Notes under the pieces: model-generated
What the model saw: only the letters and a program-made list of their open reading frames with translations
The model's database searches: none
Told to the model about the DNA's origin: nothing
Translations under genes and position numbers: made by a program
Origin: Bryobacterales bacterium
GTDB lineage: Bacteria > Acidobacteriota > Terriglobia > Bryobacterales > Bryobacteraceae
Direction of reading: 5' to 3'
Length of the DNA: 64,000 nt
Assembly (NCBI GenBank): GCA_963708385.1
Contig: CAVPSN010000017.1
Span: forward strand, 136,825 to 200,824
Shown: positions 6,334 through 63,945 of the stretch, piece after piece
How positions within the stretch are numbered: the stretch's first letter is position 1
Layout of the letters: each line of letters starts with the position of its first letter

Positions 6334-9178
6334 ATGGGACAACTGGCCGTCGGACTTGCGAAAATGGAAGTATTGGAACCGCAAACTACAACAAAAACAA
6401 AGGCCGGAATCGCGTTTCCGCGCTATTTTACCGCCCGCTTGGAAGCCGGCAAGACGCCCTACGACGAGGTGCAGTGGGAAACCCGCACCGCCTCGATCGG
6501 CAACGATAAAGGCTCGGTGATCTTCGAGCAGCGCGACATGGAGGCTCCCGCCGACTGGTCGCAGACCGCCACCAACATCGTCGCCAGCAAGTATTTCTAC
6601 GGCAAGCTCGGGTTCGCCCGAGCGCGAAACGAGCGTGGCGCAACTGGTGGAGCGCGTGGTGGACACCATCGCCGACTGGGGCAAGAAGGACGGCTATTTC
6701 AAGACCGACGCCGACGCCGAGAATTTCCGCTTCGAACTGGCGCACCTGATGCTCACGCAGAAGGCGTGCTTCAATTCGCCGGTATGGTTCAACGTGGGCG
6801 TGAAGGAGACGCGCGGCTACGGCTGGATCTACGACCAAGAAGCCGACGCGGTGAAGAAGCTGGAATCGGGCGAGCTGCGTCCGCAATGCTCGGCGTGCTT
6901 CATCGTTTCGGTGAAGGATTCGCTGGAATCGATTCTCGATCTGGCCAAGACCGAGGGCATGCTCTTCAAGTGGGGCTCGGGAACGGGCACGAACCTCTCG
7001 GCGCTGCGCGAGGAGGATGCGGTGCTTTCGGGCGGCGGGCGCGCCTCGGGACCGCTCTCGTTCATGAAGGGCTTCGATGCGTTCGCGGGCGTGATCAAAT
7101 CGGGCGGCAAGACGCGGCGCGCGGCCAAGATGGTGATCCTCAACGCGGACCATCCGGACATCGAGAAGTTCATCTGGTGCAAGGCGAAGGAAGAGAAGAA
7201 GGCCTACACGCTGGTGGAGGCGGGCTACGACTCTTCGCTCGATGGCGACGCCTACAGCTCGATCTTCTTCCAGAACGCCAACAATTCCGTGCGCGCCACC
7301 GACGAGTTCATGGAAGCGGTGGCGACGGACGGCGAGTGGTGGACCAAGGCCGTGGCCGGCGGCGAGCAAGCTGAAGCGCTATCAAGGCGCGCGACCTGAT
7401 GCGCCAGATCGCCGAAGCCACGCACCAGTGCGGCGACCCCGGCATGCAGTTCGATACCACGGTGAACCGCTGGCATCCGTGCAAGAACACGGCGCGGATC
7501 AACGCTTCGAACCCGTGCTCGGAGTACATGTTCCTGGACGATTCGGCGTGCAATCTGTCGTCGCTGAACCTGATGAAGTTCGTGGGGCCGGACGGCCAGT
7601 TCGACGTGGAGGCGTTCCGCCACGCGGTGGATACGATGATCATGGCGCAGGAGATCATCGTCGATAACGCCAGCTATCCGACGCAGAAGATCGGCGAGAA
7701 CTCGCACAACTTCCGGCCGCTGGGGCTGGGGTTCGCGAACCTGGGCGCGCTGCTGATGTCGATGGGCATTCCCTACGACAGCGACCAGGGCCGCGACATC
7801 GCGGGCGCCATTACGGCGGTGATGTGCGGCCAGGCGTATCTGACCAGCGCGCGCATTGCCGGAACCACCGGGCCGTTCCCCGGCTATGCGGAGAACGAGC
7901 AGCCGTTCCTCGAAGTGATCCGCATGCATCGCGATTCGGTGAGCCGCATCAACCGGCGCAACGTCCCGACGGCGCTTTATCAGAGGCGCGCAGCAGTGCT
8001 GGGACGACGCCTACGAATCGGGCCGGCGCAACGGCTATCGCAACGGCGCAGGTGACGGTGATCGCGCCGACCGGGACGATCGGCTTCATGATGGATTGCG
8101 ACACGACGGGCATCGAGCCCGATCTGGCGCTGATCAAGTACAAGAAGCTGGTGGGCGGCGGCGTGATCAAGATCGTGAACAACACGGTGCCGCAGGCGCT
8201 GATCAAGCTGGGCTACTCGCCGGAGCAGGTGGAGCAGATCGTCAGCCACATCGATTCGACGGGGACGATCGAGGGCGCGCCGCACTTGAAGACCGGAGCA
8301 TCTGGCGGTGTTCGATTGCAGCTTCCGGCCGCAGAACGGGACGCGGTCGATCCACTACATGGGCCACGTGCGCATGATGGCGGCGGTGCAGCCGTTCATT
8401 TCGGGCGCGATTTCGAAGACGATCAACATGCCCGAGGAGTGCACGGTGGAAGAGATCATGAGCGCCTACACCGAGAGCTGGAAGCTGGGGCTGAAGGCGG
8501 TGGCGATCTACCGCGACAACTCGAAGAAGGTGCAGCCGCTGAGTTCGGGCGCGGGCAAGGGCGAAAAGAAGGCCGCCACAGTGGCGGCGCCGACCGGGGC
8601 TACGGCGGACGAGGTCGTCGAGAAGGTGGTGTACCGGCCGGTGCGGCGCAAGCTGCCGGATGAGCGGCGGTCGATGACGCATAAGTTCTCGATCGGCGGC
8701 CACGAAGGCTACATCACGGTTGGCATGTACGACGACGGCGCGCCGGGCGAAATCTTCATCACGATGTCGAAGGAAGGCTCGACGATTTCGGGCCTGATGG
8801 ATGCGTTCGCGACGGCGGTCAGCTTCAACCTGCAGTACGGCGTGCCGCTGAAGTTCCTGGTGGACAAGTTCGCGCACGTGCGATTCGAGCCGAGCGGATG
8901 GACGGGCAATCCGCAGGTTCCGTACGCGAAGTCGATCATGGATTACATCTTCCGCTGGCTGGGCGCGAAGTTCCTGGGCGCGGAATACGCGGCTGACGGA
9001 AGCGGGCGAGACGCCGGCTGCTGCGGCCGACGGAGCCGGATCCGCAGCAGGCGCTGCCATTCGCACACCGGCGGCGGTGACGGATGCGCCGCTGTGCGCG
9101 GAGTGCGGGTCGATGATGACGCGCAACGGGAGTTGCTATAAGTGCGGGAACTGCGGCGGGACTAGCGGGTGTAGCTAG
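6334..9178 (+). pseudogene. nrdJ: Class II (adenosylcobalamin-dependent) ribonucleotide reductase NrdJ, readable only across six or more frameshifts (near 6620, 7375, 7990-8040, 8295 and 8995).
   Basis: Consecutive ORF pieces carry IVASKYFYGKLG, PQCSACFI, NPCSEY, APTGTIGFMMDCDTTGIEP, ISKTINMP and a C-terminal CxxC...CxxC zinc ribbon. Every frame switch falls within conserved sequence. Confidence 0.75.
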
Positions 9179-9298
9179 AGGCTAACTGACTCAATGCGGT
9201 GAGATCCCGACCTCGTCAGACAATGGGCGCGTTAATGTGGCCTCCTCATATCAAATGCTCCCAGTGGGGTATGTAGAATGGGAACACGAAGCTGAGGG

Positions 9299-9517
9299 AT
9301 GCGGATGCAGACGGATCTCGGGTTACAAAAAGAGTGGGAGGCTGAGTTCGAGGCGGCTGCCAAACGGCCTCTCCAACATCGCATGCGCTATGCATTCATC
9401 CACACGTATAAGCCTGTATTAGACGACGCCCGCTTCCGCGCTTTCGACACGATGGAGGAGTATCGCCAATGGTGTGACGCCAATCTGCCCGATTGGTTGG
9501 GTTATGGGCGCGTTTGA
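9299..9517 (+). CDS. Hypothetical small protein (72 aa). It could instead be joined to the open 90-aa extension upstream of the UxaA-family gene.
   Basis: ORF only; no motif recognised. Confidence 0.2.
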
Positions 9518-9743
9518 TTATCGCCAGGCTGAAGAGATTCGCGACTCATTCGCGCGCCACGCGGTCCGGTATTTATTCATAGGTAAATCCGGAGCCATTC
9601 TGTCAGGTTATCCCGACACCACTCAGGATGCGGACGGTACGTCGAGAAGGAAATCACGCCGATTCGCTCAATCGGCTTCGCTGCCTTCCACACAACCGGC
9701 TTCGCCATTGTCCAATGCGTACAAGGGCGTTAAAGTAGTCTCG

Positions 9744-11225
9744 ATGTTCATCCGCGTAAATTCCGGCGACAATGTCGGCATTATCGTAGACCCGGAGGGC
9801 TTCATCGCGCGCGAGCGCATTCCGCAAAGCCACAAAATGGCGTTGCGCGTGATTGAGGCCGGCGAGCCCGTGGTCCGCTATGGACATAACATCGGCCACG
9901 CCAACCGGCGCATCGAGGAAGGGGCGTGGGTACGCGAAGAACTGGTGGATCTGCCGGCTCCGCCCTCGCTCGACCATCTCCCCCTCGCAACAGATGTCCC
10001 AGCGCCGCTTCCGGCGCTGGATGGTTTCACCTTCGAAGGTTACCGGAACTCCGATGGCAGCGTAGGTACTCGCAACGTTCTCGGCATCGCGACCACCGTG
10101 CAGTGCGTCGCGCCGACGGTGGAGTACGCAGCGCGCCGCATCCGCGCCGAGTTGCTGCCGCGCTTTTCTAATGTCGACGACGTCGTAGCCATCACCCACT
10201 CTTACGGCTGCGGAGTAGCGATCGATGCGCCGGGCGCCGCGATCCCGATTCGAACGCTGAAGCATATTTCGCTGCACGCCAACATGGCCGTGCGACCACT
10301 GGTTGTCAGCCTGGGTTGCGAGAAATTGCAGCCAACGCGGTTGCTGGGTAGCGATCTGCCGATTCTCGGGGAAGGGAACGTGATCCGCTTGCAAGACGAG
10401 CGCGGCTTCAGCGAGAGCGTTGCGGCGATTCTTCGCGGCGCGGAAAAGCGCCTTGCGGAGCTCAACGAGCGCCGCCGGGTCCCGTGCGCCGCCGCCGATC
10501 TGGTGGTGGGGCTGCAATGCGGCGGCAGCGATGCGTTTTCCGGCGTGACGTGCAACCCAGCCGTCGGGTACGCGGCCGATTTGCTGGTCCGCGCGGGCGC
10601 CACTGTGATGTTCTCCGAAGTCACTGAAGTGCGCGACGCAGTGCACCTGCTGACGCCGCGCGCGGCCACTCCCGACATCGCCCGCGACCTTATCCGCGAG
10701 ATGCGCTGGTACGACGAATATCTGGCGCGCGGCTCGGCCGACCGCGCCGCCAACACGACTCCCGGCAACAAACGCGGTGGATTAGTCAATATCGTCGAGA
10801 AAGCGCTTGGCAGCGTCGCTAAAGCGGGCAGCACGGCTCTGTGCGCTGTCGCGGGCCACGGCGAGCGAGTCACGGCAAAAGGCCTGGTCTTCGCCGCTAC
10901 CCCGGCGAGCGATTTCATTTGCGGCACGCAGCAACTGGCGTCGATGAATCTGCACGTGTTCACCACCGGCGAAGGCAGTCCCTACGGACTTTCACTTGTT
11001 CCGGTGATCAAAATCTCTTCGCGAACAGCGCTTGCCGAAAAATGGAGCGACCTCATCGACATCGATGCCGGACGTATCGCCACCGGAGCGGCTACCATCG
11101 AAGAAATTGGATGGCAGATCTTTCGCTATCTTCTGGATGTGGCGAGCGGACGCAAACGGACGTGGGCGGAACACTGGGGATTGGGAAACGCGATGGCGCC
11201 GTTCAATCCCGGCCCTGTGACATAA
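9744..11225 (+). CDS. UxaA-family sugar-acid dehydratase (altronate/galactarate dehydratase-like).
   Basis: SAF-like N-terminus [14 protein letters not shown] plus a long UxaA-type C-terminal domain. The ORF is open from 9474, but that extension is not typical of the family. Confidence 0.75.
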
Positions 11226-11235
11226 CGTCTTCGGC

Positions 11236-12054
11236 CTATATAACCGTCTGAAGGCTGGTCAAAGCGCCGCGCATCGCTTCCAGGTTCCGGTCGGCGCCAG
11301 TTGTGTAATCCGCAATGCGAGAGATAACCTTTTCGTGCAAGCGGAGAAAAAGCCCTGCGATCTCCGGATCGCGCCAGCCTCGCTCCGTTTCCTCGCGCAT
11401 AATTCGCAAAGCCTCGTCGCGGGAGAGCGCCGGCTTATAGGGACGAGGGCTAATTAACGCATCGTAGATATCGGCTACCTGGACAATTCGCGCCAACAGC
11501 GGAATCTGATCCCCGCGCAACCCATCGGGATATCCACTGCCGTCCCAACGTTCGTGGTGGTGGCGAATAATCGGCAACACGGGCTGCAGAGAGGCAAGCG
11601 GGCGGCAGATCTCTTCCCCGCGTACGGTGTGGCTGCGCATTGTGACCCATTCCTGCGCGGTCAATTTGCCCGGTTTAAAGAGAATGGAATCGGGGATTCC
11701 GACCTTGCCGATATCGTGCAGATATCCTCCGCGGTACAGCGTTAGCAGTTGCGAGCGATCCAGGCCTATCGCCATCCCTAACGCAACGCCGATGAAGGCG
11801 AGCCGTTCGCAGTGCCCGGCGGTCTGGTGGTCGCGTTGCTCCACCGCTTGCGCCAGAGCGAAGAGAATACTTTCGGTTGGGTCGATGGCAAATTCGTTGC
11901 GGGCCTGAGGAGCAGTTTTCTCGGTGAAATCACGCGACCCCTCGAACAGGTCTTGCAATACCGCTACGCTCTTTCGTTCGGCGACGCTCGCCACGACAGG
12001 CTTGCATCCGATTCGCCCTCCGGCATAGGACTTTGGTGCTTTAGTGTAGCGCAT
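11236..12054 (-). CDS. HD-GYP domain phosphohydrolase (c-di-GMP phosphodiesterase type).
   Basis: HD...GYLHDIGK...HHERWDGSGYP motifs. Confidence 0.8.
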   Translation of the reverse strand: MRYTKAPKSYAGGRIGCKPVVASVAERKSVAVLQDLFEGSRDFTEKTAPQARNEFAIDPTESILFALAQAVEQRDHQTAGHCERLAFIGVALGMAIGLDRSQLLTLYRGGYLHDIGKVGIPDSILFKPGKLTAQEWVTMRSHTVRGEEICRPLASLQPVLPIIRHHHERWDGSGYPDGLRGDQIPLLARIVQVADIYDALISPRPYKPALSRDEALRIMREETERGWRDPEIAGLFLRLHEKVISRIADYTTGADRNLEAMRGALTSLQTVI

Positions 12055-12123
12055 GGCTCCTACTACTGCTATATCGGCGCGCCCATCGAAACGCTTGAGT
12101 ACTACGTCGAAAAAATTTGGCTC

Positions 12124-13674
12124 TTACTGGCTCCGCACCACCGTGACCGCCCGCCAGCCCGCGTTCCCGGCCGCGTCGTACGCGCGCACGGTTACCACGT
12201 TGGTACCCATTAGCAATGGAATTGCCGCCGACCATTGAGTGGTTCCGTAAGCGGTTCCCGACCCGCCGGTGGATGTGGTCCATTTGATTGCGGTAACGCC
12301 GACATCGTCAGTCGCTGTTCCGCTGAAGACAAGAGTAGAGGAATACGCCGAGACGATGCTCGAACCGGGGGAGACAATCGTGACCGACGGTGGCGTCGTG
12401 TCCGGCGCGCCAGGTTGTGTTGGATTGGTGGGCTGTTCCGGCTGCGTGGGTTGCGCCGGCTGCGAAGGTTGACTGGGCCGCACGGGCAGCGTCGGCGCCG
12501 GCGTTGGCGTACTCGGCGGAATTGGCGCATCCGGCGCGGGCGTTGACGACGCCGCGCCATATAGCGATTGAATTGCCGCTATGTCGTCGCTGGTCAAGCC
12601 CGTCTGTTGCCGGTAATAGGGATACATCACGGCGGACGGACTTGTCGAGTGCGCGAGTCCCAGCGCATGCCCTGCTTCATGCAGAGCGACGGAGAACAGA
12701 TCGACGCCAGTTCCCACTCCCCAACTTTCAGAATCGTCGAAATGCATGTCGCCCGCGAGAGGCTCGTTGTTCAGCGGGAAGGGGTAGAAGGTGTGGGCCA
12801 GCACGCCGCCCGGCCCATCGAACGGATACGGATCGCCGTGCGAATAGGCGGCAAACAGCAGATCGGCGCTGCGCGGTTGGGCGGCTTGAGCAACCGCCGT
12901 AATTGTCACGTTGGCGTACTTCATCCACTGCGCAAAGGCCAAAGCGATCTGCCCGGCTTGAGTGTTCTGATCGATCTTGGCGGTGAAATCTCCGAAGTGG
13001 TAGCCGATGGATACAGCGCCTGAGGAATCCTTCGACCAACTGGCGCCGCTGGTCGCGTATTCCGCGATCACTCCGGCCTCGGTGAGCGGCCCCGGACAAA
13101 CGTAAGGGCGCCGCCTCGCGCCCATATCGGTATCTGCAGCCATGATGAAGGCCACTTCGTCCCGATCCGCCAACGCGGGCAGGGCGCCGTAGTTTGCGGC
13201 GACCAGATAGTGGTTCGGCAGCAGTGAGGGTGCATCCAGCCGCTGAAAAGCCTGCAACAGTTCGACGGCGCGGCCTGGCGCTACGTCGCGATGAAAGATT
13301 ACCAGGAAAGCGCGTGCGCCATCCAACCCTATGCCTTGACGGTCCTGCGGTTGCAACTGTCCCGCCCACAATGCGTGCATGCCTGTCAGGTTCGGCGCGC
13401 GGGAAAACGAAACCATCAGAGCCGCATCGGGTATGTAATTCAAAATGCGTGCGCCGCGCCGCATCAACTCTGTCCGGATCGCGGCATCGGGGAACTTGGA
13501 GAACTGGAGGATCCAGTGTTGGCCGGGGCCGCCCGCGAGTGGCAGCGTGGCGATTTCTCCGCTTCCATCCGTTCGAACCGTTCGGTTTTTCAGATGAAGC
13601 ACGGCTGCTGCGGACTCGGATTGCAACAGAAGCAACCCGAGGAAGGCTATCCGAGCTACCTTCGCGGCGACCAT
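12124..13674 (-). CDS. Secreted M10 (matrixin-like) zinc metalloprotease with a Pro/Thr/Gln linker and a C-terminal Ig-like domain.
   Basis: [12 protein letters not shown] zinc motif with a Met-turn region. Signal peptide [24 protein letters not shown]. Confidence 0.8.
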
Positions 13675-13753
13675 GAATATCTTTTCGGCTGCGGAATGAG
13701 AATTTTTCGGTGCTCGATGCACTATCTCTTCGAGGAAAGGTGATATCCCTCTC

Positions 13754-16498: not shown

Positions 16499-16641
16499 CG
16501 GAGGATCGCAGGCTTAGTATAGAAGATCTTCGAGGCTAACCACAGGCTCGGCAGCATCTGGCGACAGCATCCTCACCGCGCCGGAATGTGCGCCTCAAGG
16601 CCCGCGCACCTCAGATTCCGAAGCCGCCGTCTTTGTAGGTT

Positions 16642-17733
16642 CTAGCTCATCTGATCAACGGCCTGAATCAGTGCGCGGATATAGCCGTATGCGAACGCGA
16701 ACGATTGCAGTCCACCGGGATCCGCGGCTGCTTGCGGCACATGGTCCGGCATCAGCAGATATTGGTACCCGACCTCTTTGTAGACCTGGATCGCTTTGAC
16801 GAAATCGACGTCGCCTTCGTCCGGGAAGACCTCGATGAAATCGTTGCGATGCCCGCGGATATTGCGGAAGTGCACATTGAAGATCTTGTCGCGAGTTCCG
16901 AAATAGCGGATCACGTCGAAGATCTCCTTGCCCGGGTCCGCAAGCATTTCCGAAACCGTGCCCTGGCAGAAATTGAGTCCATGATACGGGCTTTCTTGAA
17001 TGGTGATGAACTTCTTCAGCCCGTCCACCGTGCCGAGCACGCGGTTGACGCCCTGATAGCCTTCGGGCGGAACGCCCGGGTCGTGCGGATGGCATGCCAT
17101 GCGGATCTTGTACTCGTTGGCCACCGGAATGATGCGGTCAAGGAAGTAAGTGATGCGCTCCCAGAAAGCGTCGGCGTCCACTTTGCCCGCGCGCGTCAGC
17201 GGCGTCGCCGGTTTGGCGTCGCGTAGCCTCCAAGTGCTGTAAGTGGCATCGCCGCGTCCGGGGTCGCGGCCCGGAGCGCAGCACGCCCAGGATGCTCATG
17301 TTGTATTTGATCGAAGGAATGCCGGCTGCGGCGCAGTTCTTGATGAGTAGTCTGAAGCTGCTCGATGTCGCGGTCGCGCTCCGGGCTCTGCGCCAGCATG
17401 ATGGCGCCATGCTTCTCGCGGTCGATATGGCTGGACGTGAGAATAGGCGCGGCGATGCCTTCGAGGGTGATGCCGTTCTTTTGCGCGAGATCCTGGATGG
17501 CCTTCAGCTCGTCCACCGTGGCATAGACGCGGTCACCCTCGATGTGCGGATAGCCAGTGATGTCGCTTGACGCCGTAACGCGCCAGGTATTTCAGATGAA
17601 CGTCGTTGGTGGGAGCGCTCTGGCAGCCCAGGCGCATCATCGCGCGCTTAGTGGGTGCGGCGGGAGCGGGAGGAGCGGCCGCGGCTGCGAGAGCCGCGCC
17701 AGACGTGGATTGGAAGAATCTTCGGCGATTCAT
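16642..17733 (-). pseudogene. uxuA: Mannonate dehydratase (UxuA) family TIM-barrel protein with an N-terminal twin-arginine signal. It is broken into four frames near 17520, 17350 and 17235.
   Basis: Tat-like N-terminus MNRRRFFQSTSGAALAAAAAP. Pieces carry [62 protein letters not shown] and [11 protein letters not shown]...MPDHVPQ (compare UxuA VRMAVHPDDPP...MRPDHGH). Confidence 0.6.
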
Positions 17734-18198
17734 AATCTTGCCGGATAGTATACCGGAGTTTACCGATAAAGGAAGGCTCCAACAGCGCCATGGGTTGCCA
17801 TGGGCTGCCCTTCGCCCGACCGAATCGCAGTAATCCTTGTCCTCGTTCCGTCATGACCTCTCCAAGTTGCGCGCCAACGGTCTGGCCAAAAAAAAGGTGC
17901 CCCGTTCCCTCCGCTATCGACTCGAACGACAAGGGCTATTCTATCTGCGTCGTGATCCTCAAACTGTTCGAAAGTCTACGCACCTCTCTCTCAGCGGGCC
18001 TGTTGACGCAATTTCCGCAACCACGCGCTCGCCTAAGAGAAACGTTCTCAACTTGACCGCCTGTCGACGCATCTGCGACGACCTGGATGCGTTCCTCGGC
18101 GCGGTCGGCTTCAAAGTTATTGCTTGCCCTTATGACGGGAACTAAATGCTCGATGGACACCTCAATCTAAGATATTATTCTCAAGGAAGGGCCTCGCC

Positions 18199-21365: not shown

Positions 21366-21456
21366 GTCTTTGAGCGTGTAGCAAGTCACCCGCACTCAGT
21401 CATCTTCTTTGCGGTCACACTGTAGTTGAAGGAAGGCAGTTTTCGCAGGTCGGAGG

Positions 21457-21478
21457 GCTGGCAAGGGCAGCTGCCAGC
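21457..21478. terminator. Possible bidirectional hairpin (GCTGGCA-agggcagc-TGCCAGC) between the convergent beta-helix gene and fabG.
   Basis: 7-bp stem with an 8-nt loop and no U-tract. Confidence 0.25.
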
Positions 21479-21484
21479 AGATCG

Positions 21485-22219
<735 letters not shown>

Positions 22220-22282
22220 ATATCTCCCGCCAGGCTGGATGCCGGCGCCACTCTGTTACTGTTAAAGAACTCAATCATAACT

Positions 22283-23744
22283 ATGGCCTATCGCGACCTG
22301 CGCGAATTCATTCGCGCGCTGGAAAAGAACGGACGAACTGAAGCGCATTCCCGTTCGAAGTGGACCCGGTGCTCGAGATCACCGAGTTCGCCGACCGCGC
22401 CGTAAAACAGGGCGGACCCGCGCTGCTGTTCGAAAAGCCGAAGGGCTACTCGACTCCGGTGCTGATCAACGCCTTCGCCTCGATGCGCAAGATGGAGATC
22501 GCGCTCGAGGTGGAGTCGGTGGAGGAGGTCGCCGCGCGCATCGTCGAGTTTCTGGAAATGCGCATGCCCGAAGGCATGCATGGGCAAGCTCAAGATGCTG
22601 CCGAAACTGGCCGAGATGGGCGCGTTCTTTCCCGAAGATCGTATCCAAGGGCCGATGCCAGGAAGTGGTGCGCACGCGAAGGCTTCTCGCTGCTCGACTA
22701 TCCCGTGCTGCAATGCTGGCCGGAGGACGGCGGCCGCTTCATCACGCTGCCGCTGGTGTTTTCGCGCAATCCCGATACCGGCAAGCGCAATTGCGGCATG
22801 TACCGCATGCAGGTTTTCGACGAGCGCACCACCGGCATGCACTGGCAGACGCACAAACAGGGCGCGGAACATTATCGCCGCATGCAGCACGCAGGGGCGC
22901 AAGCGGATGGACGTCGCGGTGGCGATCGGCGCCGACCCGGCCACCATGTACTCGGCGATTCTGCCGCTGCCGCCCGATCTCGACGAGATGATGATCGCCG
23001 GCTTCCTGCGGCAGAGCCCGGTGGAAATGGTGAAGTGCCAGACCTGCGACCTGGAGGTGCCGGCGCAACGCCGAGATCGTGCTCGAAGGCTACGTGGAAC
23101 TGGGCGAACTGCGCACCGAAGGCCCGTTCGGCGACCACACCGGCTTCTATTCGCTGGCCGACGAATACCCGGTGTTCCACGTCACCTGCGTGACGCAGCG
23201 CAAGGACCCGATCTACGCCACCACCATCGTGGGGCCGCCGCCGATGGAAGACTACTACATGGGCAAGGCGATCGAGCGCATTTTCCTGCCGCTGATGCGC
23301 CTGCAACTGCCGGAGGTGCGCGATATCGCGATGCCGGCCGAGGGCGTGTTTCACAACCTGATTCTGGTGTCGATCCGCAAATCGTATCCGGGCCACGCGC
23401 GCAAAGTGATGCATTCCATCTGGGGCACGGGGCAGGCGATGTTCTCGAAGTGCATCGTGGTGGTGGACGAAGACGTGGACGTGCAGAACTACCGCGAAGT
23501 GGCATGGAAGGCGCTGAACAATATCGATCCCGAGCGCGACATCCAGTTCGTGCTGGGGCCGGTCGATTCGCTCGATCACTCCAGCCGGCTGCCGAACTAC
23601 GGCTCGAAGATGGGCATCGACGCCACGCGCAAATGGCCCGGCGAAGGCTTCACGCGCCCGTGGCCGGGCGTGATCGAGATGCCCGCGGAGGTGAAAAAGC
23701 GGGTGGATGAGCTGTGGAAACGTGCGGGACTGCCAAAGAGCTAG
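22283..23744 (+). pseudogene. ubiD: UbiD-family (de)carboxylase (3-octaprenyl-4-hydroxybenzoate carboxy-lyase-like) with seven or more frameshifts (22335, 22352, 22575, 22640-22665, 22895, 23070).
   Basis: MAYRDLREFIRALEKNG..., VLEITEFADRAVKQGGPALLFE, ...CWPEDGGRFITLPLVFSRNPDTGKRNCGMYRMQV... and ...DHTGFYSLADEYPVFHVTCVTQRKDPIYATTIVG are spread over three frames. Confidence 0.75.
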
Positions 23745-24014
23745 CCCGAGGCTGTCCAGTTCACTTAGGTAGTCAAGTAGCCGTATGCCTCCCCGTCGTC
23801 GCCCGAGAACCAAGGGAGCGGCTCTCAACCCGGGCTGTTTCACAATTTCTTGGAGCATCTCCATCGATAGGCCCAACGATCCTTTCAGGGCGCAGTTCTC
23901 AGGGCGCAGTTCTCCCGAAATTATAGATTCTCAGAACAGAACGACGTTGCTGAAGAAGGTCATCGAGCGTCCAGGCACTCAGCAGCTTCGAGACGTTACA
24001 ATCTAGGATCTTCG

Positions 24015-30123: not shown

Positions 30124-30648
30124 ATGCAAAGCAATATGAAACTCGGCGAAAAAATTCGCTACCTGCGGGAGGTCGAAGGGACGCTTCGCGGTCTCGACCG
30201 CGAAATCTCCCAGCTCGAGCTCGCTCGTCTGATCGAAAAGGAGTCGGGCAAATCGATCAGCCAGAGCTATCTGTCGCAGATTGAAAGCGGCGCGCGGCCG
30301 CATCTTACCAATGCCACGCGCATGCTGCTGGCGCGCTTTTTCAAGGTGCATCCCGGCTATCTGGTGGACGACCCGGAGGGTTTCCAGAACGAGCTGATCT
30401 CAGATGTCGGCGCGCTCGAAGACAAGCTCGATCTCTGGCTGGTGAGCGGCGCGGAGCGGTTCCGCACGCGAGCCGGCATTGCACCATGCGCTGCTCGCCA
30501 TCGCGCAAGCACAACGATTCGCGCGCGTGCCTGGTGCTGCTGGCGAACGATTCTGGAAAACCCGGGGCTGGCCGAACGGCTGATGGAAGTTTTGAAGCCG
30601 GAGACGCCAAGGCAAGAGGTCCCACGCAAAAACGGGAGGCGTTCATGA
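30124..30648 (+). CDS. XRE-family helix-turn-helix transcriptional regulator.
   Basis: HTH ISQLELARLIEKESGKSISQSYLSQIESG. Its TGA overlaps the ATG of the next gene (ATGA). The middle of the C-terminal half may carry an indel pair. Confidence 0.6.
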   Translation: MQSNMKLGEKIRYLREVEGTLRGLDREISQLELARLIEKESGKSISQSYLSQIESGARPHLTNATRMLLARFFKVHPGYLVDDPEGFQNELISDVGALEDKLDLWLVSGAERFRTRAGIAPCAARHRASTTIRARAWCCWRTILENPGLAERLMEVLKPETPRQEVPRKNGRRS

Positions 30649-31242
30649 ACTGGTCGGATTTTTATCTCGTGTGCTTTCTTGTCGGATTCGGCTTGAGCGT
30701 ACTGTCGCTGTTGGGCGGCAGCGCGCACCTGCACTTGCCGCATCTGCACTTGCATCACGGCGCGCACATGGGCCGCGGCGGAAACTCGTGGTTCAATTTC
30801 GGCACCATCGCCGCGTTTCTCGCCTGGTTCGGCGGCACGGGCTATCTGCTGGAACACTATTACGGCGTATGGTTCGTGCTCGCGCTGGGTATTTCGATCG
30901 TCAGCGGCATCGGCGCAGCGGCGGTGGTGTTCTGGTTTCTCGCCAAGGTGCTGATGTCGCGCGAGGCGCCGCTCGACCCGGCCGATTACGACATGGTCGG
31001 CGTGCTGGGAAGCTTGAGCTGCCCATCCGCGCGGGCGGCACCGGCGAATTGATCTATTCGCAGGAGGGGACCCGCCGCGTGCGCCGGCGCGCGCAGCGAA
31101 GATGGCGAGGCCATCCCCAAAGGCAGCCGAAGTGATCGTCACCCGCTACGAAAAAGGCATCGCCTACGTGCGCCCGTGGGACGATTCGCGGCCGGCATTG
31201 CCGGATCGCCAGAATCGCAGAGTAACTAAAGGAGAAGAGTAA
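30645..31242 (+). pseudogene. NfeD-like membrane protein (partner of SPFH/flotillin proteins), frameshifted near 31020 and 31075.
   Basis: Multi-TM N-terminus (MNWSDFYLVCFLVGFGLSVLSLLGG...). The C-terminal OB-like part ...IRAGGTGELIYSQEGTRRV... / ...EDGEAIPKGSEVIVTRYEKGIAYVRPWDD lies in other frames. The RBS GGGAGG precedes the ATG. Confidence 0.6.
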
Positions 31243-31262
31243 GTCGAAACGGAGTAACTTTT

Positions 31263-32707
31263 ATGGACAACCAAGTGTTCGTGATCGGCGGCTGATGTAC
31301 TCGTCGCTGCTGTTTCTGATGGCCATGTTCGCCAGGCTGTACCGCAAGGCGGGGCCGCACGAGGCGCTGATCGTTTACGGCTTCCGCGGCACGCGCGTCA
31401 TCAAGGGCCGCGGCACCGTGATCTTTCCCATGGTGGAGAGCTGCCGCGGGCTGTCGCTCGAACTGATGTCGTTCGACGTCGCGCCGCAGCAGGATCTCTA
31501 CACCCGGCAGGGCGTCGCGGTGACGGTGGAAGCCGTGGCGCAGATCAAGGTGAAGTCGGATCCGGAATCGATCCTCACCGCCGCCGAGCAGTTCCTCACC
31601 AAGCCGCCGCAGGAGCGCGAAGGCCTGATCCGGCTGGTGATGGAAGGCCATCTGCGCGGCATCATCGGCCAGCTGACGGTGGAAGAGATCGTCAAGCAGC
31701 CGGAAATGGTGGGCGAGCGGATGCGCTCCACCTGCGCCGACGACATGAACAAGATGGGCCTCGAAGTGATCTCGTTCACCATCAAGGAAGTCCGCGACAA
31801 GAACGAATACATCACCAACATGGGCCGGCCCGATGTCGCCCGCATCAAGCGCGATGCCGACGTCGCCGCCGCCGAAGCCGATCGCGACACCGCCATCAAG
31901 CGCGCCGAGGCGTCGCGCGAAGCCGCCGTCGCCAAGGCCCAGGCCGATCAGGAGCGCGTGCTCGCCGAGACGCTGTCGCAGGCCAAGCAGGCCGAAGCGC
32001 AGCGCGATCTCGAAATCAAGAAGGCCGAATATCTCGAAACCGTCAAGAAGCAGCAGGCGCAGGCGGACAAGGCCTACGAGATCCAGACCAACATCATGCA
32101 GCAGCAGGTGCGCGCCGAGGAGGTCACGATCCACCAGGTGGAGAAGGAGCACGAGGTCAAGGTGCAGGAGGCGGAAATTCAGCGCCGCGAGCGCGAACTG
32201 ACCGCCACCGTGCTGAAGCAGGCCGAGTTCGAGCGCCGGCGCATCGAGACCCTCGCCGAAGCCGAAAGCCAGCGTACCGATCATCGAAGCCGAAGGCCGC
32301 GCCGCCGCCATCCGCGCGCAGGGCGAAGCCGAAGCCGAGATCATCTTCAAGAAGGGCGAGGCCGAAGCCAAGGCGATGAACGTGAAGGCCGAGGCCTACC
32401 AGGAGTTCAACCAGGCGGCGATCGTCGACAAGCTGATCACCGCCATGCCGGAAATCGTGCGGGCGCTGGCGGCGCCGCTCGCCAACGTGGACAAGATCAC
32501 GATCGTCTCCACCGGCAACGGCGACTCCGCCGGCATGCAACAAGATTACCGGCGACATCACGCAAGATGGCGGCGCAGATTCCCGCGCTCTTCGAGACGC
32601 TCTCGGGCATGCCGATGAGCGAACTGTTCGCGAAGATGCGCACCATCGGCGACAGCACGCCCAAGCCCGACGATAAGTCGAAGGGCGCGAGCGCACTAAG
32701 ACGATAA
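31263..32707 (+). pseudogene. Flotillin-like SPFH/band-7 protein with frameshifts near 31290, 32275, 32540 and 32575.
   Basis: SPFH core (ALIVYGFRGTRVIKGRGTVIFPMVE...), then a coiled-coil Ala/Glu-rich region. Individual single-base insertions can be seen by comparing frames (atgCaacaag, caaGatggcg). Confidence 0.7.
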
Positions 32708-32718
32708 GGAAGAAGACT

Positions 32719-33383
32719 ATGGCACTTTTGGAACGCGTTGCCACACTGGTCCGGGCCAATCTCAACGACCTGATCGATCAGGGCCGAAGAGCCGGAAAAA
32801 ATGATCAAGCAGGTGATTCTCGACATGGAGAACCAGCTGCTCCAGGTCAAGACGCAGGTGGCGATCTCGATCGCCGACCAGCACGTGCTCGAGAAGAAGC
32901 TGCAGGAAAGCGAGGAGAACGAGAAGCAATGGATGCGCCGCGCCGAAATGGCGGTGGACAAGAAGGACGACAATCTGGCGCGCGCGGCGGTGGAGCGCTC
33001 CATGAGCTATCAATCGATGACCGCGAGTTTCCGCCAGCAGGTGGAGGATCAGAAGACGCAGGTGGAGAACCTGAAGACGGCGCTGCTCAAGCTGCAGCAG
33101 AAGCTTGAAGAAGCCCGCGCCAAGAGCCATACGTTGATCGCCCAACATCGCCGGACGCGCGCCGCGGAAAAGGCCGGCCGCGGCCGGCGTGCATGTGAAC
33201 GGCGGCGCGAACGCCGCGGCGTTCGACCGCATGAAGGAGAAGGTGCGCCACACGGAAGCCACCGCCGCCGCGCAGGCCGAACTTGTGGCCGACGACGTAG
33301 AAGAGCAATTCGCCAAGCTCGAAAAGGAAGACGAGATCAATCGCTTGCTGGCGGAGCTGAAATCGAGGCGCAAAGCCAGCTGA
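32719..33383 (+). pseudogene. pspA: PspA/IM30 family protein with frameshifts near 32780 and 33180.
   Basis: MALLERVATLVRANLNDLID... continues in another frame as ...KMIKQVILDMENQLLQVKTQVAISIADQHVLEKKL.... The C-terminus ...FDRMKEKVRHTEATAAA... follows. Confidence 0.65.
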
Positions 33384-33402
33384 TTCAGGCGGAGAGGCAT
33401 TT

Positions 33403-33801
33403 ATGACCTACAAAGGACGGAACGACCTCTGGTTCATCGCATCATTCGCCCTGGCCACGGCCGCACTGCTCTTCATGGGTAAGTATTGGATCGGCGGCCC
33501 GCTGCTTCTCGTCTTCACACTGTGCGTGCTGCCGCAGACTTACGAGGTAGCCTCCGACGGCGTACACATCCGCGCCGGATTGGTGCGGCGCTACATTCCA
33601 TACAATGTGATCACCTATGTAGGCCCATGCGGCGGCGGACAAAATCTGGCGTTAACGCTCGACGGCGTCTGCCTCCGCTACGGCCTGAACTCCGAGATCC
33701 GCATCGCCCCCGCCGACGCGCCGGGTTTCATCGCCGATGTAGCCAGCCGCACTCCACACCTGGTGAAGCGCGGCACGAACCTGGTGCTGACTCCAGCGTG
33801 A
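33403..33801 (+). CDS. Small membrane protein with two N-terminal TM helices and a PH-like soluble domain.
   Basis: Hydrophobic segments LWFIASFALATAALLFMGKYWIGGPLLLVFTLCVL. No motif recognised. Confidence 0.45.
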   Translation: MTYKGRNDLWFIASFALATAALLFMGKYWIGGPLLLVFTLCVLPQTYEVASDGVHIRAGLVRRYIPYNVITYVGPCGGGQNLALTLDGVCLRYGLNSEIRIAPADAPGFIADVASRTPHLVKRGTNLVLTPA

Positions 33802-36145: not shown

Positions 36146-36390
36146 ATAGGCATACAGTATAACTGGGAGCGTCGGCTGAATCGGCGCGTGGCGAAGGTCG
36201 TGAAAGCGGCAGCCAGACGATATCGAGCCGCGTACTTAATTCCGGAGATATCGGAGCCGGAGAACGCCGAATCGCCGCGAAGCGCTTTTGCTGGCGAACC
36301 CGTTCGGCATAGATGGAAGGCTGGGTTTCCAAATAGAAGGAAGAACTTGGCTCAGCGCCAGCGCTGCGATTTATCTCTACGATTGCGCCT

Positions 36391-38547: not shown

Positions 38548-39635
38548 ATGGACCTCAACATACTGGTTCTTCCCGGCGACGGTATCGGAACCGAAGTAAC
38601 CCGCGAAGCCGTTCGCGTGCTGCGGCGCGTCGCGGAGAAGTGGAATCACAAACTTCATCTGACCGAAGGCCTGCTCGGCGGAGTGGCGATTCATAAGACT
38701 GGCTCTCCGTTTCCCGATGAAACCGCGCGGTTGGCCTCGGAGGCGGACGCGACTCTGCTAGGCGCTGTGGGATTGCCCGAGTTTGATTCGGCGCCGCCGG
38801 AAAAGCGTCCGGAAAAGGGCCTGTTGGGCATTCGCAAAGCGCTGGGCGTATATGCGAATTTGCGCCCGGTGCGCGCGTACGCATCGCAACTCGATTCTTC
38901 GCCCTTGAAGAATCACCTGGTGGAAGGCGTAGATCTGATTATCGTCCGCGAACTGACGGGCGGAATCTACTATGGAACGCCGCGCGGCATCTCTGGAGAA
39001 GGCGCGGCGGAGCGAGGAGTCAATACCATGACTTATACACGCGCCGAAATCGAGCGCGTTACTCGCATGGCCTTCCACCTGGCGCGCGCGCGAAGGAAGA
39101 AAGTAACTTCGGTGGATAAGTCGAATGTGCTCGAAACCTCACAGTTATGGCGGCGAGTAACCATCGAGATTGCGAAAGATTATCCCGATGTGGAGCTCGA
39201 TCACATTTTGGTCGATAACTGCGCGATGCAGTTGATTTTGAATCCGCGGCGCTTCGACGTGCTGCTGATGGAAAATATGTTCGGCGATATCCTGAGCGAC
39301 GAAGGCGCGGTGTTGGCAGGCTCGATCGGCATGCTGCCTTCGGCCTCTATCGGCGACCGCCGTCCGAATGGCGTGTGGGTGGGCCTATATGAACCGGTGC
39401 ACGGATCCGCGCCCGGACATCGCGGGTCAAAACAAAGCCAACCCTCTCGGCGCCATCGGGTCGGCTGGGCGCTATGCTGGAATATAGCTTCGGATTGAAG
39501 GAAGAGGCCGCCGCGGTGGATCGCGCGATTGAAGCCGTGCTGAAGAGCGGCCGCGTCACGGCCGATTTGAAGCCCGCGGGCAAGCCGGCGACGACTGAAG
39601 AAGTGGGCGAAGCGGTCTGCGCCGCAATTGGATAA
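38548..39635 (+). pseudogene. leuB: 3-isopropylmalate dehydrogenase LeuB. The C-terminus is reached only across two indels near 39413 and 39468.
   Basis: LPGDGIGTEV, ...NLRP..., ...DKSNVLETSQLWRR... The true C-terminus ...AMLLEYSFGLKEEAAAVDRAIEAV... lies in a third frame. Confidence 0.75.
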
Positions 39636-39638: not shown

Positions 39639-41039
39639 ATGCCAAAGACAATTATCGAGAAGCTTTGGGACGCGCACGTCGTACATGAACAAGCGGGTGC
39701 GCCTACGCTTTTGTTTATCGACCTCCACTTAGTACACGAGGTCACTTCGCCGCAGGCTTTTGACGGCTTGCGCGCGCGCGGCATCAAAGTTCGGCGTCCC
39801 GATCTCACCATTGCGACAGCCGACCACAGCATCCCCACCACGGATCGTTCACTGCCAATTCTCGACCCCATCGCGGCCAACCAACTCGCTCAGCTAGAGA
39901 TCAATTGCAAAGAATTCGGCATCCGATTGTTGGGAGTCCACAGCGATAAACAAGGAATCGTACACGTGATAGGCCCGGAACTGGGACTGACCCAGCCCGG
40001 AATGACCGTAGTCTGCGGCGATAGTCACACAGCGACGCACGGCGCGTTCGGCTCGCTGGCGTTCGGCATCGGTACCAGCGAGGTGGAGCACGTGCTGGCC
40101 TCGCAATGCCTGCTGCAGCGCCAGTCGAAGACGTTTCAGGTGCGCGTGGATGGCGCGCTTCGGCCGGGCGTTTCCGCCAAGGACATTATCCTCGCGCTGA
40201 TCGCGCAGATCGGCATCGGCGGCGGGACGGGAAGCGTTTTCGAATACACGGGCAGCGCCATCCGCGCGCTTTCCATGGAAGAGCGGATGACCGTGTGCAA
40301 TATGTCGATCGAGGGCGGCGCCCGGGCCGGCATGGTTGCGCCGGACGATACGACGTTCCAGTATCTGGCGGGACGGCCGCATGCGCCGAAGGGCGCGGCA
40401 TGGGAGGCCGCCATCGCGCGGTGGAAACAGTTACCCACGGATGACGGCGCCACTTACGACAGCTCCGTTGCGATCGACGCTAATGCGCTCGAACCGATGA
40501 TCACGTATGGCACCAACCCGGGCATGGGCGTGGCAATCGGCGCGCCGGTTCCGGAGCCATCGAAGCTTTCCGACCCGATGCAGCGCGAGTCGGTCGAGAA
40601 AGCGCTGAAATACATGGGCATTGAGGGCGGGAAGCCGTTGCTCGGGCACGCCGTCGATGTTGTATTTATCGGAAGCTGCACCAACTCGCGCATCAGCGAT
40701 CTGCGATCGGCCGCTCAGGTCCTCAAAGGCCGGAAAGTGAGTCCGAATGTGCGGGTAATGGTGGTGCCGGGTTCACAGGAAGTGAAGCGACAGGCCATTG
40801 CCGAAGGATTGCCCGAGCTATTCCGCGCCGCGGGATGCGAGTGGCGCGAGCCCGGCTGCTCGATGTGCATCGCGATGAATGGCGATCAATTGACGCCGGG
40901 GCAATACGCCGTATCCACCAGCAATCGCAACTTCGAAGGACGGCAGGGCAAGGGCGGGCGTACATTTCTGGCTAGCCCACTGACGGCTGCGGCAAGCGCG
41001 CTTGCCGGCGCGGTCGCCGATGTGAGGACCATTTTATGA
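39639..41039 (+). CDS. leuC: 3-isopropylmalate dehydratase large subunit.
   Basis: Aconitase-family motifs, including the Cys ligands (GSCTNSR..., CSMCIAMN). Intact. Confidence 0.85.
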
Positions 41040-41638
41040 AGCCGTTCACGAACTTCGAAAGCCGGCTGGTGAAACTGCGGATGAATAATATCGACACCGA
41101 TCAGATTATTCCGGCGCGCTTTCTGAAAACTACGTCGAAGATCGGGTTGGATAAAAACCTCTTCTACGACTGGCGCTACAACGCGAATGGCGAACCGATT
41201 CCGTCGTTCATCCTGAACAAACCGGAATCTCAAGGTGCGCAGGTCTTGCTCGCGGGCGATAATTTCGGCTGCGGAAGTTCGCGCGAGCATGCGCCATGGG
41301 CGCTGACGCAGTTCGGATTCCGCGCTGTCATCAGCACCAGCTTCGCCGACATATTCAAGCAGAATTCGCTGAAGAACTCCTTGCTGCCGATTGTGGTCCC
41401 GGCGGAAGTCCACGCGGTCTTATTCGCCGCGCCGCCTGATGTCATGGTCCAAATCGATCTTGCGAAACAAACCCTGACGACGCCAGACGGCCGCGCCGTG
41501 GAGTTTCCCATCGACGAATTCTCGAAGCACTGTCTGCTCGAAGGGGTCGACGAACTCGGTTACATCCTACACCAGGATGCGGCGATCGCAGCGTATGAAA
41601 CCGCGCACCCAGCCATTATCAACGCGTTAGTAGGATAG
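41036..41638 (+). CDS. leuD: 3-isopropylmalate dehydratase small subunit.
   Basis: Aconitase swivel domain ([17 protein letters not shown]). Overlaps leuC by 4 nt. Confidence 0.85.
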
Positions 41639-59185: not shown

Positions 59186-59189
59186 GTTG

Positions 59190-60010: not shown

Positions 60011-60028
60011 GCATGATGGAGAGCGCCG

Positions 60029-60496: not shown

Positions 60497-60516
60497 CCCG
60501 CTACGAGGCAGCCAAA

Positions 60517-60864: not shown

Positions 60865-60891
60865 CTTCCTCGTGCCATACTGAACCAGAAT

Positions 60892-62141
60892 ATGAAGATT
60901 CTATTCCTCCTCGCATCGGCCTCTCTGGCCCTGTTTGCCCAGACCCCGCCCATCGAAGAGCTTATCCAGGCCGCACGCGGCGGCCCGGCCACTCCCGGGC
61001 TCAAAGACATGATCGTGAAGACGCTCGGCGCGCACGGCGGTCAAAACGTCTGGGGCCAAGATTACATCTTCGTCGCCGATTCCCCAACGCCCGTCACCGT
61101 CTCCATCGATCAACTGCCAGCCCGTCCCCATGGCTCAGGTCGAGGGCTCTACGTTCTGGATGCTTCTCAAAAAGATGCGCACCGGCGTCACGCATTCATT
61201 CCAGTACTATGCAGCGGGGAAGCCGCTGGGCGCGCGCGGCGATGCCATCGGCTATAATCCCGATTCCTACCCTAAGCCCGGCGTTCCGCATGGCAAAGCC
61301 AGCGAAAAGCTTACCATCGTCAGCAAGATCTACGATGGCATGAAGTCCGACTATTGGATCTACGCCTCTCCCGGCGTCGACCCCTCGGTCCCTTCGCCCC
61401 TCATGGTCTGGCAGGATGGCCAGGGTCTGGTCGGCGATTTCTCGCGTCGCCGCCTTTTCACGGTCACCGAGAATCTGGTGCAGCAGAAGCTGCTACCGCC
61501 CATCGTCCACGTGCTGATCGCACCCGGGACTTCAACCGATGGCCGCGCCATGCGCTCCATCGAGTACGACACCGTCAGCGACCGCTACCCGCGCTTCCTG
61601 ATGGAAGAGGTGCTGCCCGAAGTCGAGAAGACCTACAAGCTCCGCCCGGATGGCTATAGCCGCGCTATCGCGGGCGAATCCTCCGGCGGCATCTGCGCCT
61701 TCAACGCCGCCTGGCTGATGAACGATCATTTCAGCCGCGTCCATTCAGCGGTCGGCAGTTTCACCTCCATCCAATGGCATCCGGAGGAAAAGCTCGAAGG
61801 CGGCAACGTCTATCCGTTCAAGGTGCGCAAGGAACCCAAGCGCAACATCCGCGTCTGGATGAGCGATGGCTCCGACGATCTCGAGAACCAATTCGGCTCC
61901 TGGCCCATGCAGAACATCCAGATGGCGAACTCGCTCAAGCTTCGCGAATACGATTTCCATTTCCGTTTCGGCACAGCCGCGCATGGCGGTGCTCAAGCGG
62001 CGCTCGATCTGCCCGAATCGCTGGCATGGCTCTGGCGCGATTACGACCCGCACGAAGACGTCGCAGGAATATCAGATGGACCCTGCCGAAAAGGACAAGC
62101 CGTTCTTCCGCGTAACCATCACCAGCCGCGACGCCTGGTAA
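60892..62141 (+). pseudogene. Secreted alpha/beta-hydrolase esterase (enterochelin-esterase-like) with an N-terminal extra domain. Frameshifts near 61122 and about 62065.
   Basis: Signal peptide MKILFLLASASLALFAQ. The nucleophile elbow is GESSGG in IAGESSGGICAF. The two ORF pieces join at ...DQLPARP/MAQVEGSTFW. Confidence 0.6.
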
Positions 62142-62146
62142 CCGAG

Positions 62147-63945
62147 ATGCCGAAATCGCGCCGTCAATTTCTCACCCGCGCCTCTATCGGCTTCTTGGTC
62201 ACATCGGCCGGATGCCGCAAACCCGTCGAGCAATCGAGCGAACTACCGCCTGGCGCTCCTCCCGCATTCGGAACCGCGCCCGATGTCGGGCCGCCAGTCT
62301 CCACCGCAACCTTCGCCGAGGCCGAAAAGCTGGTCCAGTTTCCGCTCACCGCGCCCGAACGGGAAACCGCCGCTGGCAATTGGCGCAAATCCATGGCGCC
62401 GGTTTACGAACGCCGGACTGGGCCGCGCAAACTCGCCATCGAACCATCGGTTGCGCCCGCCACGCAATGGAATCCCGCGATTCCCGGCGTGCGCATCGGC
62501 CCGGAGCGCGACCGGTTCGTCCGCAGCAAGCCCGATCCCGGCCCTCTGCCCGCGAACGACGCCGATATCGCGTTCGCGCCTGTCACTCAACTCTCGCGTT
62601 GGATCGAGACACGGGAAGCTCACTTCCGAGCGACTCACCGCGATCTATCTCGATCGCCTGCAGCGCTTCGATCCCAAACTCCACTGCGTCATCACGCTCA
62701 CCGCGATCGGCCTCGGCGCAAGCCAAACAAGCCGATGCCGAAATCGCCGCCGGCAAATATCGCGGCCCGCTGCACGGCATTCCGTTCGGCGTGAAAGACC
62801 TGCTCGATACCGCCGGTATCCCCACCACCTATGGCGCGGAACCCTTTCGCAACCGCGTTCCCGACGCACGATGCCGCGGTGGTCAAGCGCCTGCATGAAG
62901 CCGGCGCCGTGCTGGTGGCAAAACTGAGTCTGGGCGCGCTCGCGCTCAACGATATCTGGTTCGGCGGGCAGACCATGAATCCCTGGCTGCTGGAAGAAGG
63001 CGCCTCCGGTTCGAGCGCCGGTCCTGGCGCGGCCACCGCCGCGGGACTGGTTGGCTTTTCCATCGGCAGCGAGACCGGCGGCAGCATCGTCAGTCCCTCG
63101 ATGCGCTGCGGCATCACGGGACTGCGCCCCACCTACGGCCGCGTGCCGCGCACCGGCGCGATGACGCTGTGCTGGTCGCTCGATAAACTCGGCCCCATGA
63201 CGCGCGGCGTCGAAGACGGCATGCTGGTCCTGCAAGCCATTTCCGGTCCCGACGCGGGCGATCTCGCCAGCGTCCCCGCGCATCTCGATTTCGACGCCGC
63301 CGCGCCCGTACAGGGCTTGCGCGTCGGCTACTTCCCCGCTTGGATGAAGGAAGCGCCGGCGACCGATGTGGACCGCGCCGCGCTCGAGCTGTGCAGAAAA
63401 CTCGGCATGATTCCGACCGAAGTGTCGCTTCCCGATTGGCCCTACGACTCCCTCCAATTGATCCTCTTCGCCGAAGCCGCCGCGGCGTTCGAAGAGCTCA
63501 CGCTCGGCGGCGGACTTGCGCCAACTTAAGGCGCAGGTTCCCGACGCGTGGCCCAACCTCTTCCGGCAGGCGCGGTTTCTCTCGGCCGTGGATTTCGTCC
63601 AGGCCGACCGCATGCGGCGCAAAGTGGCGCAGGAGATGGCGCGTATCTTCTGGCGAGGTCGATCTGCTGCTGGTTCCCGTCGCTGCGCGACGAGATGCTG
63701 ACTATCAGTAACTTCACCGGGCATCCGTCGCTCACATTGCGCGCCGGGTTCGTCGAAGTCTCCGAAGCGCGCAGCGATTGGGCGCCCGACCCGGCGCATC
63801 CCTGCCGAAGTTCTCTCCGCCGCGCCGCGTGCCGCACGGAGTCACGCTGATCGGGCGGCTGTTCGAAGAGGGCACGTTGGGCAGTGTGGGAATCGCGCTC
63901 GAACAGGACCTTCATGTTGTTTCAGAGAGGCCGCCGGGGTTTTAG
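62147..63945 (+). pseudogene. Tat-signal amidase (amidase-signature family), broken by six or more frameshifts (62605, 62705, 62860, 63525 and further 3').
   Basis: MPKSRRQFLTRASIGFLVTSAGC Tat/lipobox-like N-terminus. Gly/Ser-rich amidase-signature stretch GASGSSAGPGAATAAGLVGFSIGSETGGSIVSPS. The pieces are spread over four frames. Confidence 0.65.

Follow-up and report, generated by a model that had tools for sequence, protein, structure and literature searches.

Gene Content of the Window and Distribution of Indels

The analyzed window comprises 64,000 nucleotides of contig CAVPSN010000017.1 (assembly GCA_963708385.1, positions 136,825 to 200,824) from a soil-dwelling member of the Bryobacterales (Bryobacteraceae, Acidobacteriota). 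The genes considered here are nrdJ, a UxuA-like gene, a gene for a TIG-domain protein, fabG, ubiD, a cluster of HTH, nfeD, flotillin and pspA genes, leuB, leuC, and an esterase and an amidase gene. The subject of this study is the large number of insertions and deletions (indels) that shift the reading frames of these genes, and the origin of these indels. The frame switches were first detected by frame analysis together with a codon-usage Viterbi pass. This reproduced the switches of an initial annotation, made from the letters alone, in nrdJ, the UxuA-like gene, the TIG gene, fabG, ubiD, the HTH/nfeD/flotillin/pspA cluster, leuB, the esterase and the amidase. A candidate frameshift at ~60476 from the Viterbi pass was rejected, as it was found to be the ordinary boundary of two genes.

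The exact position of each indel was determined by comparison with assemblies of the same population, which were recovered by exact-protein look-ups. The reference for window positions 3742-26519 was the locus L085 (JGI 3300086555). The reference for positions 29187-64000 was a 52.8-kb contig (JGI 3300079560) formed by the loci L167 and L170. Parts of the window are also covered by L168, L171, L003, L172 (GCA_049578745.1, a metagenome-assembled genome (MAG) from NCBI) and two short Logan contigs. The six same-population loci (L003, L085, L167, L168, L170, L171) originate from four samples or assemblies (JGI 3300086555, 3300079560 and 3300086547; GCA_049578745.1).

Compared to these references, the window contains a total of 68 indel events: a single base is inserted in 50 and deleted in 15 of them, and 3 are longer. 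The length is 1 bp for 65 of the 68 indels, and about 58 of them are located within 12 genes (Table 1). Eight patches with a combined length of 12.5 kb contain 60 of the 68 indels, whereas 57.4 kb were compared in total (binomial P = 2e-31). The indel density is 4.8 per kb within the patches and 0.18 per kb outside. The same eight patches also contain 904 of the 1,070 mismatches found in the window. Indels located close to each other are frequent: 29 neighbors were observed at a distance of at most 60 bp, about twice the number expected within the patches (15.5 ± 2.8).

No indel was found in any gene of the stretches at 9.5-16.5, 23.7-26.5, 33.4-39.2 and 39.7-61.1 kb. The region between 26.5 and 29.2 kb lies outside the reference coverage; here, an open reading frame (ORF) of 1,698 aa is uninterrupted and equal in length to the reference gene call. 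Outside the patches, the window contains about one homopolymer error in 45 kb. A single C insertion at 9718 is intergenic, with surrounding sequence identical to L085, and lies ~25 bp upstream of the start of a GD_AH gene (9744). Due to this insertion, the window ORF 9474-11225 appears 90 codons longer than the true gene.

The patchy distribution, the intact stretches between the patches and the pairing of indels, all described in the initial annotation, are thus in agreement with the reference comparison. Its count of at least 30 frameshifts was an underestimate.

Table 1. Divergent patches and an isolated deletion in the window. Substitutions and indels are given relative to assemblies of the same population.
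Feature	Position	Strand	Genes	Substitutions	Indels	Indels per gene
Patch 1	6201..9153	+	nrdJ (B12-dependent ribonucleotide reductase, 6334-9178) and leader	8.0%	nine one-base insertions (6311, 6610, 7366, 7381, 7980, 8047, 8291, 8995, 9016); one deletion (9066); 3-bp insertion (6326)	NrdJ 9
Patch 2	16782..17485	-	UxuA-like/AP_endonuc_2 gene (16642-17640)	3.7%	insertions 17350 and 17565 (17565 at patch edge); 2-bp loss (17274-17276)	UxuA-like 4
Patch 3	21451..23757	both	fabG (21485-22219, minus); ubiD (22283-23744, plus)	8.3%	14 one-base insertions; 2 deletions	FabG 6; UbiD 7
Patch 4	30214..33643	+	HTH_3 regulator, NfeD, flotillin, PspA	8.5%	13 one-base insertions; 4 deletions; one 2-bp insertion	HTH 3; NfeD 4; flotillin 8; PspA 2
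Patch 5	39263..39557	+	leuB 3′ end (gene 38548-39635)		insertions 39411 and 39466 (LeuB truncated to 316 aa)	LeuB 2
Patch 6	40384..41134	+	leuC	4.9% (37 mismatches, mostly third codon positions)	none (substitutions only)
Patch 7	61187..62069	+	esterase gene (60892-62141)	4.2%	insertions 61124 (patch edge) and 62054	esterase 2
Patch 8	62655..63857	+	amidase gene (62147-63945)	6.1%	5 one-base insertions; 4 one-base deletions; sixth amidase insertion (62617) just outside patch border	amidase 10
Isolated deletion	19727	+	TIG gene		GGGG to GGG compared to L085, in a G-homopolymer	TIG 1

Affected Genes in Independent Assemblies

Overlapping assemblies of the same population are 99.8-100% identical to each other without any gap. 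This also applies to the regions of nrdJ, leuB-leuC and the esterase-amidase pair. Every affected gene is intact in all same-population assemblies covering it, and none of the lesions of the window is present in any other same-population assembly covering the respective site. For example, L003 and L085 both contain an intact NrdJ (923/945 aa) with a mutual identity of 99.8% and no gaps. Two clean stretches of the window are matched by the short Logan contigs (ERR11563127). The best matches of the NrdJ protein stitched from the broken frames of the window are encoded in soil and peat MAGs of Bryobacteraceae/Solibacteraceae (Acidobacteriota), with identities of 85-94%.

The source contig has a length of 363,343 bp and is available from NCBI and ENA. 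Several products of the window were located on it by exact look-ups, among them the deposited truncated LeuB of 316 aa and truncated TIG-domain protein of 553 aa. The frameshifts therefore already exist in the publicly deposited data and did not arise during preparation of the window. In a scan of a genome collection with UbiD, 80 relatives were found and the contig of the window itself was absent, probably because the frameshifts lowered its score. A JGI scan with flotillin returned relatives at 80-90% identity only and no contig of the same population.

The removal of single bases had been proposed in the initial annotation as a means to restore the reading frames. When the indels were reversed, zero internal stops remained in 12 of 12 genes, and the repaired products showed 91-99% amino acid identity to the proteins of their own population. 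The HTH gene is still open in the window since its three insertions (30469, 30505 and 30549) bring the frame back after a garbled stretch of 80 nt.

The deletion at 19727 divides the 1,055-aa TIG-domain gene (18199-21365) into two ORFs (18199-19860 and 19683-21365). The divergence around this position (19.2-21.2 kb) is only about 1%. This deletion belongs to an error class distinct from the patches and represents either a common homopolymer error or true variation. An intergenic 10-bp tandem duplication (GCCATGGGTT) was observed upstream of the TIG gene at 17787-17796 in comparison to L085.

Substitutions Within the Patches

The divergence from the own population ranges between 3.7 and 8.5% substitutions within the patches compared to 0.37% outside, where many 250-bp bins are free of mismatches. 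Between 68 and 88% of the patch mismatches were found at third codon positions. Synonymous codon changes outnumber non-synonymous changes by far in all 12 genes (180 vs. 33 in NrdJ).

For ubiD, the window departs from the own strain in 129 alleles, 128 of which occur among 80 relatives. The mean frequency among these relatives is 0.62 for the window allele and 0.23 for the allele of the own strain. In 111 of 135 differences between the window and the own strain, the change leads to the plurality allele of the relatives. Where the own strain carries the plurality allele, the window differs at only 15 of 1,229 sites. Where the own strain departs from it, the window carries the plurality allele at 111 sites and shares the allele of the own strain at 82 sites. 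The ubiD sequence of the window was ranked 1 of 82 both for mean identity to all relatives and for its match to the plurality allele. The mean identity to the relatives was 3-4 points above that of the own strain in each of the five genes tested (ubiD, flotillin, fabG, pspA, HTH/nfeD). No relative is more than 92% identical to the ubiD of the window, and no single relative matches this patch closely. Judged by these comparisons, the substitutions in the patches are natural alleles and not random noise.

Signature of the One-Base Insertions

One-base insertions are significantly more frequent than one-base deletions (50 vs. 15; P = 2e-5). An inserted base equal to a flanking base was found in 5 of the 50 insertions, whereas 44% would be expected (P = 2e-7). 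Homopolymers are thus avoided, which fits the observation in the initial annotation that the insertions lie outside homopolymers.

The inserted base and its neighbor usually represent two alleles carried by relatives at one polymorphic column, hereafter referred to as the tandem-allele signature. For example, CG of the window at position 8047 is aligned with A, G or C in relatives, GA at 8291 with A or G, and CA at 23066 with A or C. Using the four to five closest relatives per gene, the signature could be identified in 27 of 32 testable insertions compared to 5.8 expected. None of 2,000,000 simulations reached 27, the highest value being 18. A version of the test with all ~80 relatives was dropped because its null rate of 0.5-0.6 was too high to discriminate.

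Borders of Homology and Co-occurring Relatives

The borders of patches 2 and 3 (16.6-17.6 and 21.4-23.8 kb) are identical to the borders of homology to one type of relative (L005), a Microflora Danica MAG that is 90-93% identical. The lineage-specific TIG gene located between these two patches is absent from this relative and does not contain such a patch. The nrdJ gene shows 89-91% identity across many relatives. The nearest NrdJ matches on long contigs (L001 and L002) have no synteny with the window and were used as allele sources only.

JGI sample 3300079560 contains the own population (L167, ~99-100% identical) as well as a syntenic relative (L004, a 254-kb contig with 83-89% identity). 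The presence of both in one metagenome directly demonstrates the co-occurrence of closely related Bryobacteraceae. The L003 contig (JBAUMQ010000896.1 of GCA_049578745.1), which is of short-read style, terminates exactly at the 3′-end of nrdJ. This is the usual short-read break at an inter-genome repeat, where the contig of the window runs through with a blended consensus.

Comparable damage was found in a related species. In the 162-kb contig L173 (ENA ERZ25039465, contig_56535), the locus 5891-16823 is syntenic with 34.5-45.4 kb of the window, and the genes for LeuA-like, LeuB, LeuC, LeuD, ProRS and M28 proteins are all in fragments. Compared to L167, this locus has 47 one-base insertions and 10 one-base deletions. 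The error mode is hence not unique to the contig of the window, and it is more widespread in L173.

Origin of the Frameshifts

The frameshifts are best explained as an assembly artefact, in which conserved segments of related genomes were collapsed into a single consensus. From the sequence data this explanation appears highly likely. The deposited sequence does contain the frameshifts, but the feature is not biological.

The consensus of the eight segments would have been built from DNA of this organism pooled with DNA of related Bryobacteraceae. The pooled segments would be those sharing ~88-93% nucleotide identity with co-occurring relatives. The pooling could have occurred through cross-mapped reads during polishing or through a collapsed inter-genome repeat edge in the assembly graph. 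At polymorphic columns, the more common foreign allele would win, and the sequence would be drawn to the most common allele of the family, 4-8% away from the true sequence. Where two alleles compete, the consensus may sometimes keep both in series, resulting in an extra base unlike its neighbors and a shifted frame. The retention of both alleles adds a base and would explain the insertion bias as well as the avoidance of homopolymers. The patch structure, the origin of the alleles, the tandem-allele insertions and the integrity of the genes in other assemblies are shown directly by the sequence comparisons.

Related ENA contigs have Flye-style names and many of the relatives are Microflora Danica nanopore MAGs. 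Together with the 363-kb length of the source contig, this is compatible with a long-read metagenome assembly. The Microflora Danica MAGs were assembled using Flye and one round of Medaka without short-read polishing (PMC12313526). Read-unsupported INDELs that break ORFs have been reported in metaFlye and metaMDBG contigs (Trigodet et al., bioRxiv 10.1101/2025.04.22.649783).

The leuC gene reads intact, but its sequence is probably blended, too. This patch demonstrates that the artefact can escape frameshift checks.

Several points weigh against a collapsed consensus. Cross-mapping, coverage spikes and the absence of read support are inferred from the assembled sequences, and the same applies to the source, which is probably a nanopore-only long-read assembly of the Flye plus Medaka type. 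With regard to closeness to the family center, the window does not take the first rank in fabG and pspA, though its shift points toward this center. The tandem-allele signature is lacking in five of the 32 testable insertions with the relatives compared, and the test covered the genes for which diverse relatives were available, which do not include the esterase, amidase and leuB genes. Furthermore, the region between 9.4 and 12 kb is clean despite 84-89% identity to the syntenic relative L004. Identity to L004 was therefore rejected as a predictor of the patches, since it fits nrdJ and fails for this region. Not every conserved segment is thus affected, and the identity to a single relative is insufficient as a predictor. 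The decisive factor would instead be how abundant all cross-matching relatives are in sum, relative to the coverage of the organism itself.

Even when combined, the alternative explanations (recombination, low-coverage error, and pseudogenes or a mutational process) are improbable. The patches could be genuine homologous-recombination imports from related species in conserved genes, with the frameshifts being separate sequencing errors. The sharp borders of the tracts, their location in conserved genes, their natural and mostly synonymous alleles and the co-occurrence of related populations would be consistent with such imports. However, all tracts are absent from every other same-population assembly covering a patch, and they are drawn to the center of the family instead of a single donor lineage, with the best ubiD relative at 92%. 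In addition, the tracts do not keep the reading frame, and the frameshifts lie almost solely within them. The inserted bases correspond to alternative alleles of the neighboring site, which ties the indels to allele mixing and not to independent error. L173 bears the same insertion-biased damage. Imports are considered very unlikely. It is barely conceivable that the patches are real and due to repeated gene conversion by several co-occurring Bryobacteraceae, with faulty heteroduplex processing leaving tandem alleles as +1 insertions. If true, this would be a localized recombination-coupled mutational process that inactivates core genes.

Among the three causes listed without preference in the initial annotation, a chimeric consensus between strains is the one supported by the data, but the sequences mixed are from relatives at species or genus level (8-10% divergent) and not from strains. 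Another of these causes, patches of low coverage, here taken as random residual long-read errors, is highly improbable. The length of the source contig (363 kb), the clustering of the errors and the classic homopolymer deletion at 19727 would be in line with it, but only 19727 fits this error class. The mismatches are natural and non-random, with the third-position bias and the nearly complete ubiD allele match to relatives described above. The insertions avoid homopolymers and mostly carry the tandem-allele signature, and the consensus outside the patches is of high quality and essentially error-free. The third cause, a localized mutational process in this strain, or real pseudogenes, is hardly credible. 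Frameshifted genes do occur in the deposited record. Nevertheless, essential genes would have acquired 2-9 frameshifts each (nrdJ 9, fabG 6, leuB 2) while synonymous changes dominate, and the indels are uniform in size and almost uniform in sign. The inserted bases represent alleles found in other species, and all of the changes are lacking in the nearly identical genomes of four further samples or assemblies. Genuine decay had already been judged implausible in the initial annotation, which agrees with these results. Programmed ribosomal frameshifting or recoding was rejected as well, because a single reading frame is kept in all orthologues (including 120 NrdJ proteins as well as 80 loci each for UbiD and flotillin), and the window has several shifts per gene at sites common to no orthologue.

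The initial annotation had also contrasted broken housekeeping genes with intact lineage-specific ORFs. This contrast does not hold. ProRS, LeuA-like, LeuD, the Tricorn protease and others are conserved yet intact, the LeuC patch is without an indel, and the lineage-specific 1,055-aa TIG gene is broken by the homopolymer deletion at 19727.

Comparison With Known Error Types

Trigodet et al. (bioRxiv 10.1101/2025.04.22.649783) described read-unsupported single-nucleotide variants (SNVs) and INDELs that break ORFs in thousands of genes. Chimeric constructs at loci common to subpopulations are also described there, with metaFlye and metaMDBG performing worst for unsupported SNVs and INDELs. That benchmark was based on PacBio HiFi data and its errors were described via read clipping, whereas the present analysis is based on comparative genomics. 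In the window, the mixing involves species-level relatives at conserved genes; a tandem-allele one-base insertion is not described in the available text of that study.

In the collapse of inter-genomic repeats, conserved genes likewise act as repeats common to several genomes, and short-read contigs break there, as seen for L003. Such a collapse usually leads to fragmentation or gross chimeras, whereas contiguity and synteny of the window are right and only the base-level consensus is wrong. Nanopore homopolymer indels (Sereika et al., 2022; PMC9262707) also result in truncated proteins, which are found by IDEEL-type length tests, and the deletion at 19727 is of this kind. In contrast, the other ~57 coding indels of the window are non-homopolymer, insertion-biased and confined to the blended patches. 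Mosaics from inter-species recombination are similar in that conserved genes contain divergent tracts with sharp borders and mostly synonymous changes. In a real mosaic, the tract corresponds to a donor lineage and the frame is preserved, whereas the tracts of the window are family-consensus-like, frameshifted and absent from other same-population assemblies.

Further Observations in the Window

A 24-bp tandem repeat with ~17 copies was found at 328-740, inside a hypothetical gene of 228 aa on the minus strand (~151-896). Between 400 and 1400, the window is ~7% divergent from the same-strain contig L003, with a 3-bp deletion at 520 and a frameshifting 1-bp deletion at 705. Instead of cross-genome blending, this divergence may reflect a repeat array that varies or has collapsed.

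At 36145-36440, between the M28 peptidase and LysR genes, ~520 bp of L167/L168 are missing in the window, including a gene for a 96-aa DUF433 protein. Only a divergent remnant of ~150 bp is left at this site, together with a few clustered mismatches and the insertion 36209. The loss is either a real strain difference or another assembly collapse, both being compatible with the data.

No tRNA genes were found in the window (1-64000) by a tRNA scan, and no Rfam family reached the gathering score in an Rfam scan. The latter includes the 555-bp non-coding leader upstream of nrdJ (5774-6328), in which no RNA element was recognized.

Significance for the Organism and Its Family

With respect to the organism, the frameshifts reveal nothing new, as nrdJ, fabG, ubiD, leuB, the flotillin/PspA module and the other genes are intact in all other assemblies covering them. 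Their relevance lies in data quality, for which they serve as a caution. The error mode is probably not a one-off, since L173 shows the same damage more widely. It affects conserved genes that are used in completeness scoring, phylogenomic placement and metabolic inference. As contiguity and synteny stay perfect, chimera checks by GC content, coverage or marker duplication would miss it. A tandem-allele +1 insertion within a patch of raised synonymous divergence could possibly serve as a read-free screen for public long-read MAGs. Blended genes without a frameshift, such as leuC (40384-41134), look normal, and their pull toward the family average could distort phylogenetic trees and average nucleotide identity values.

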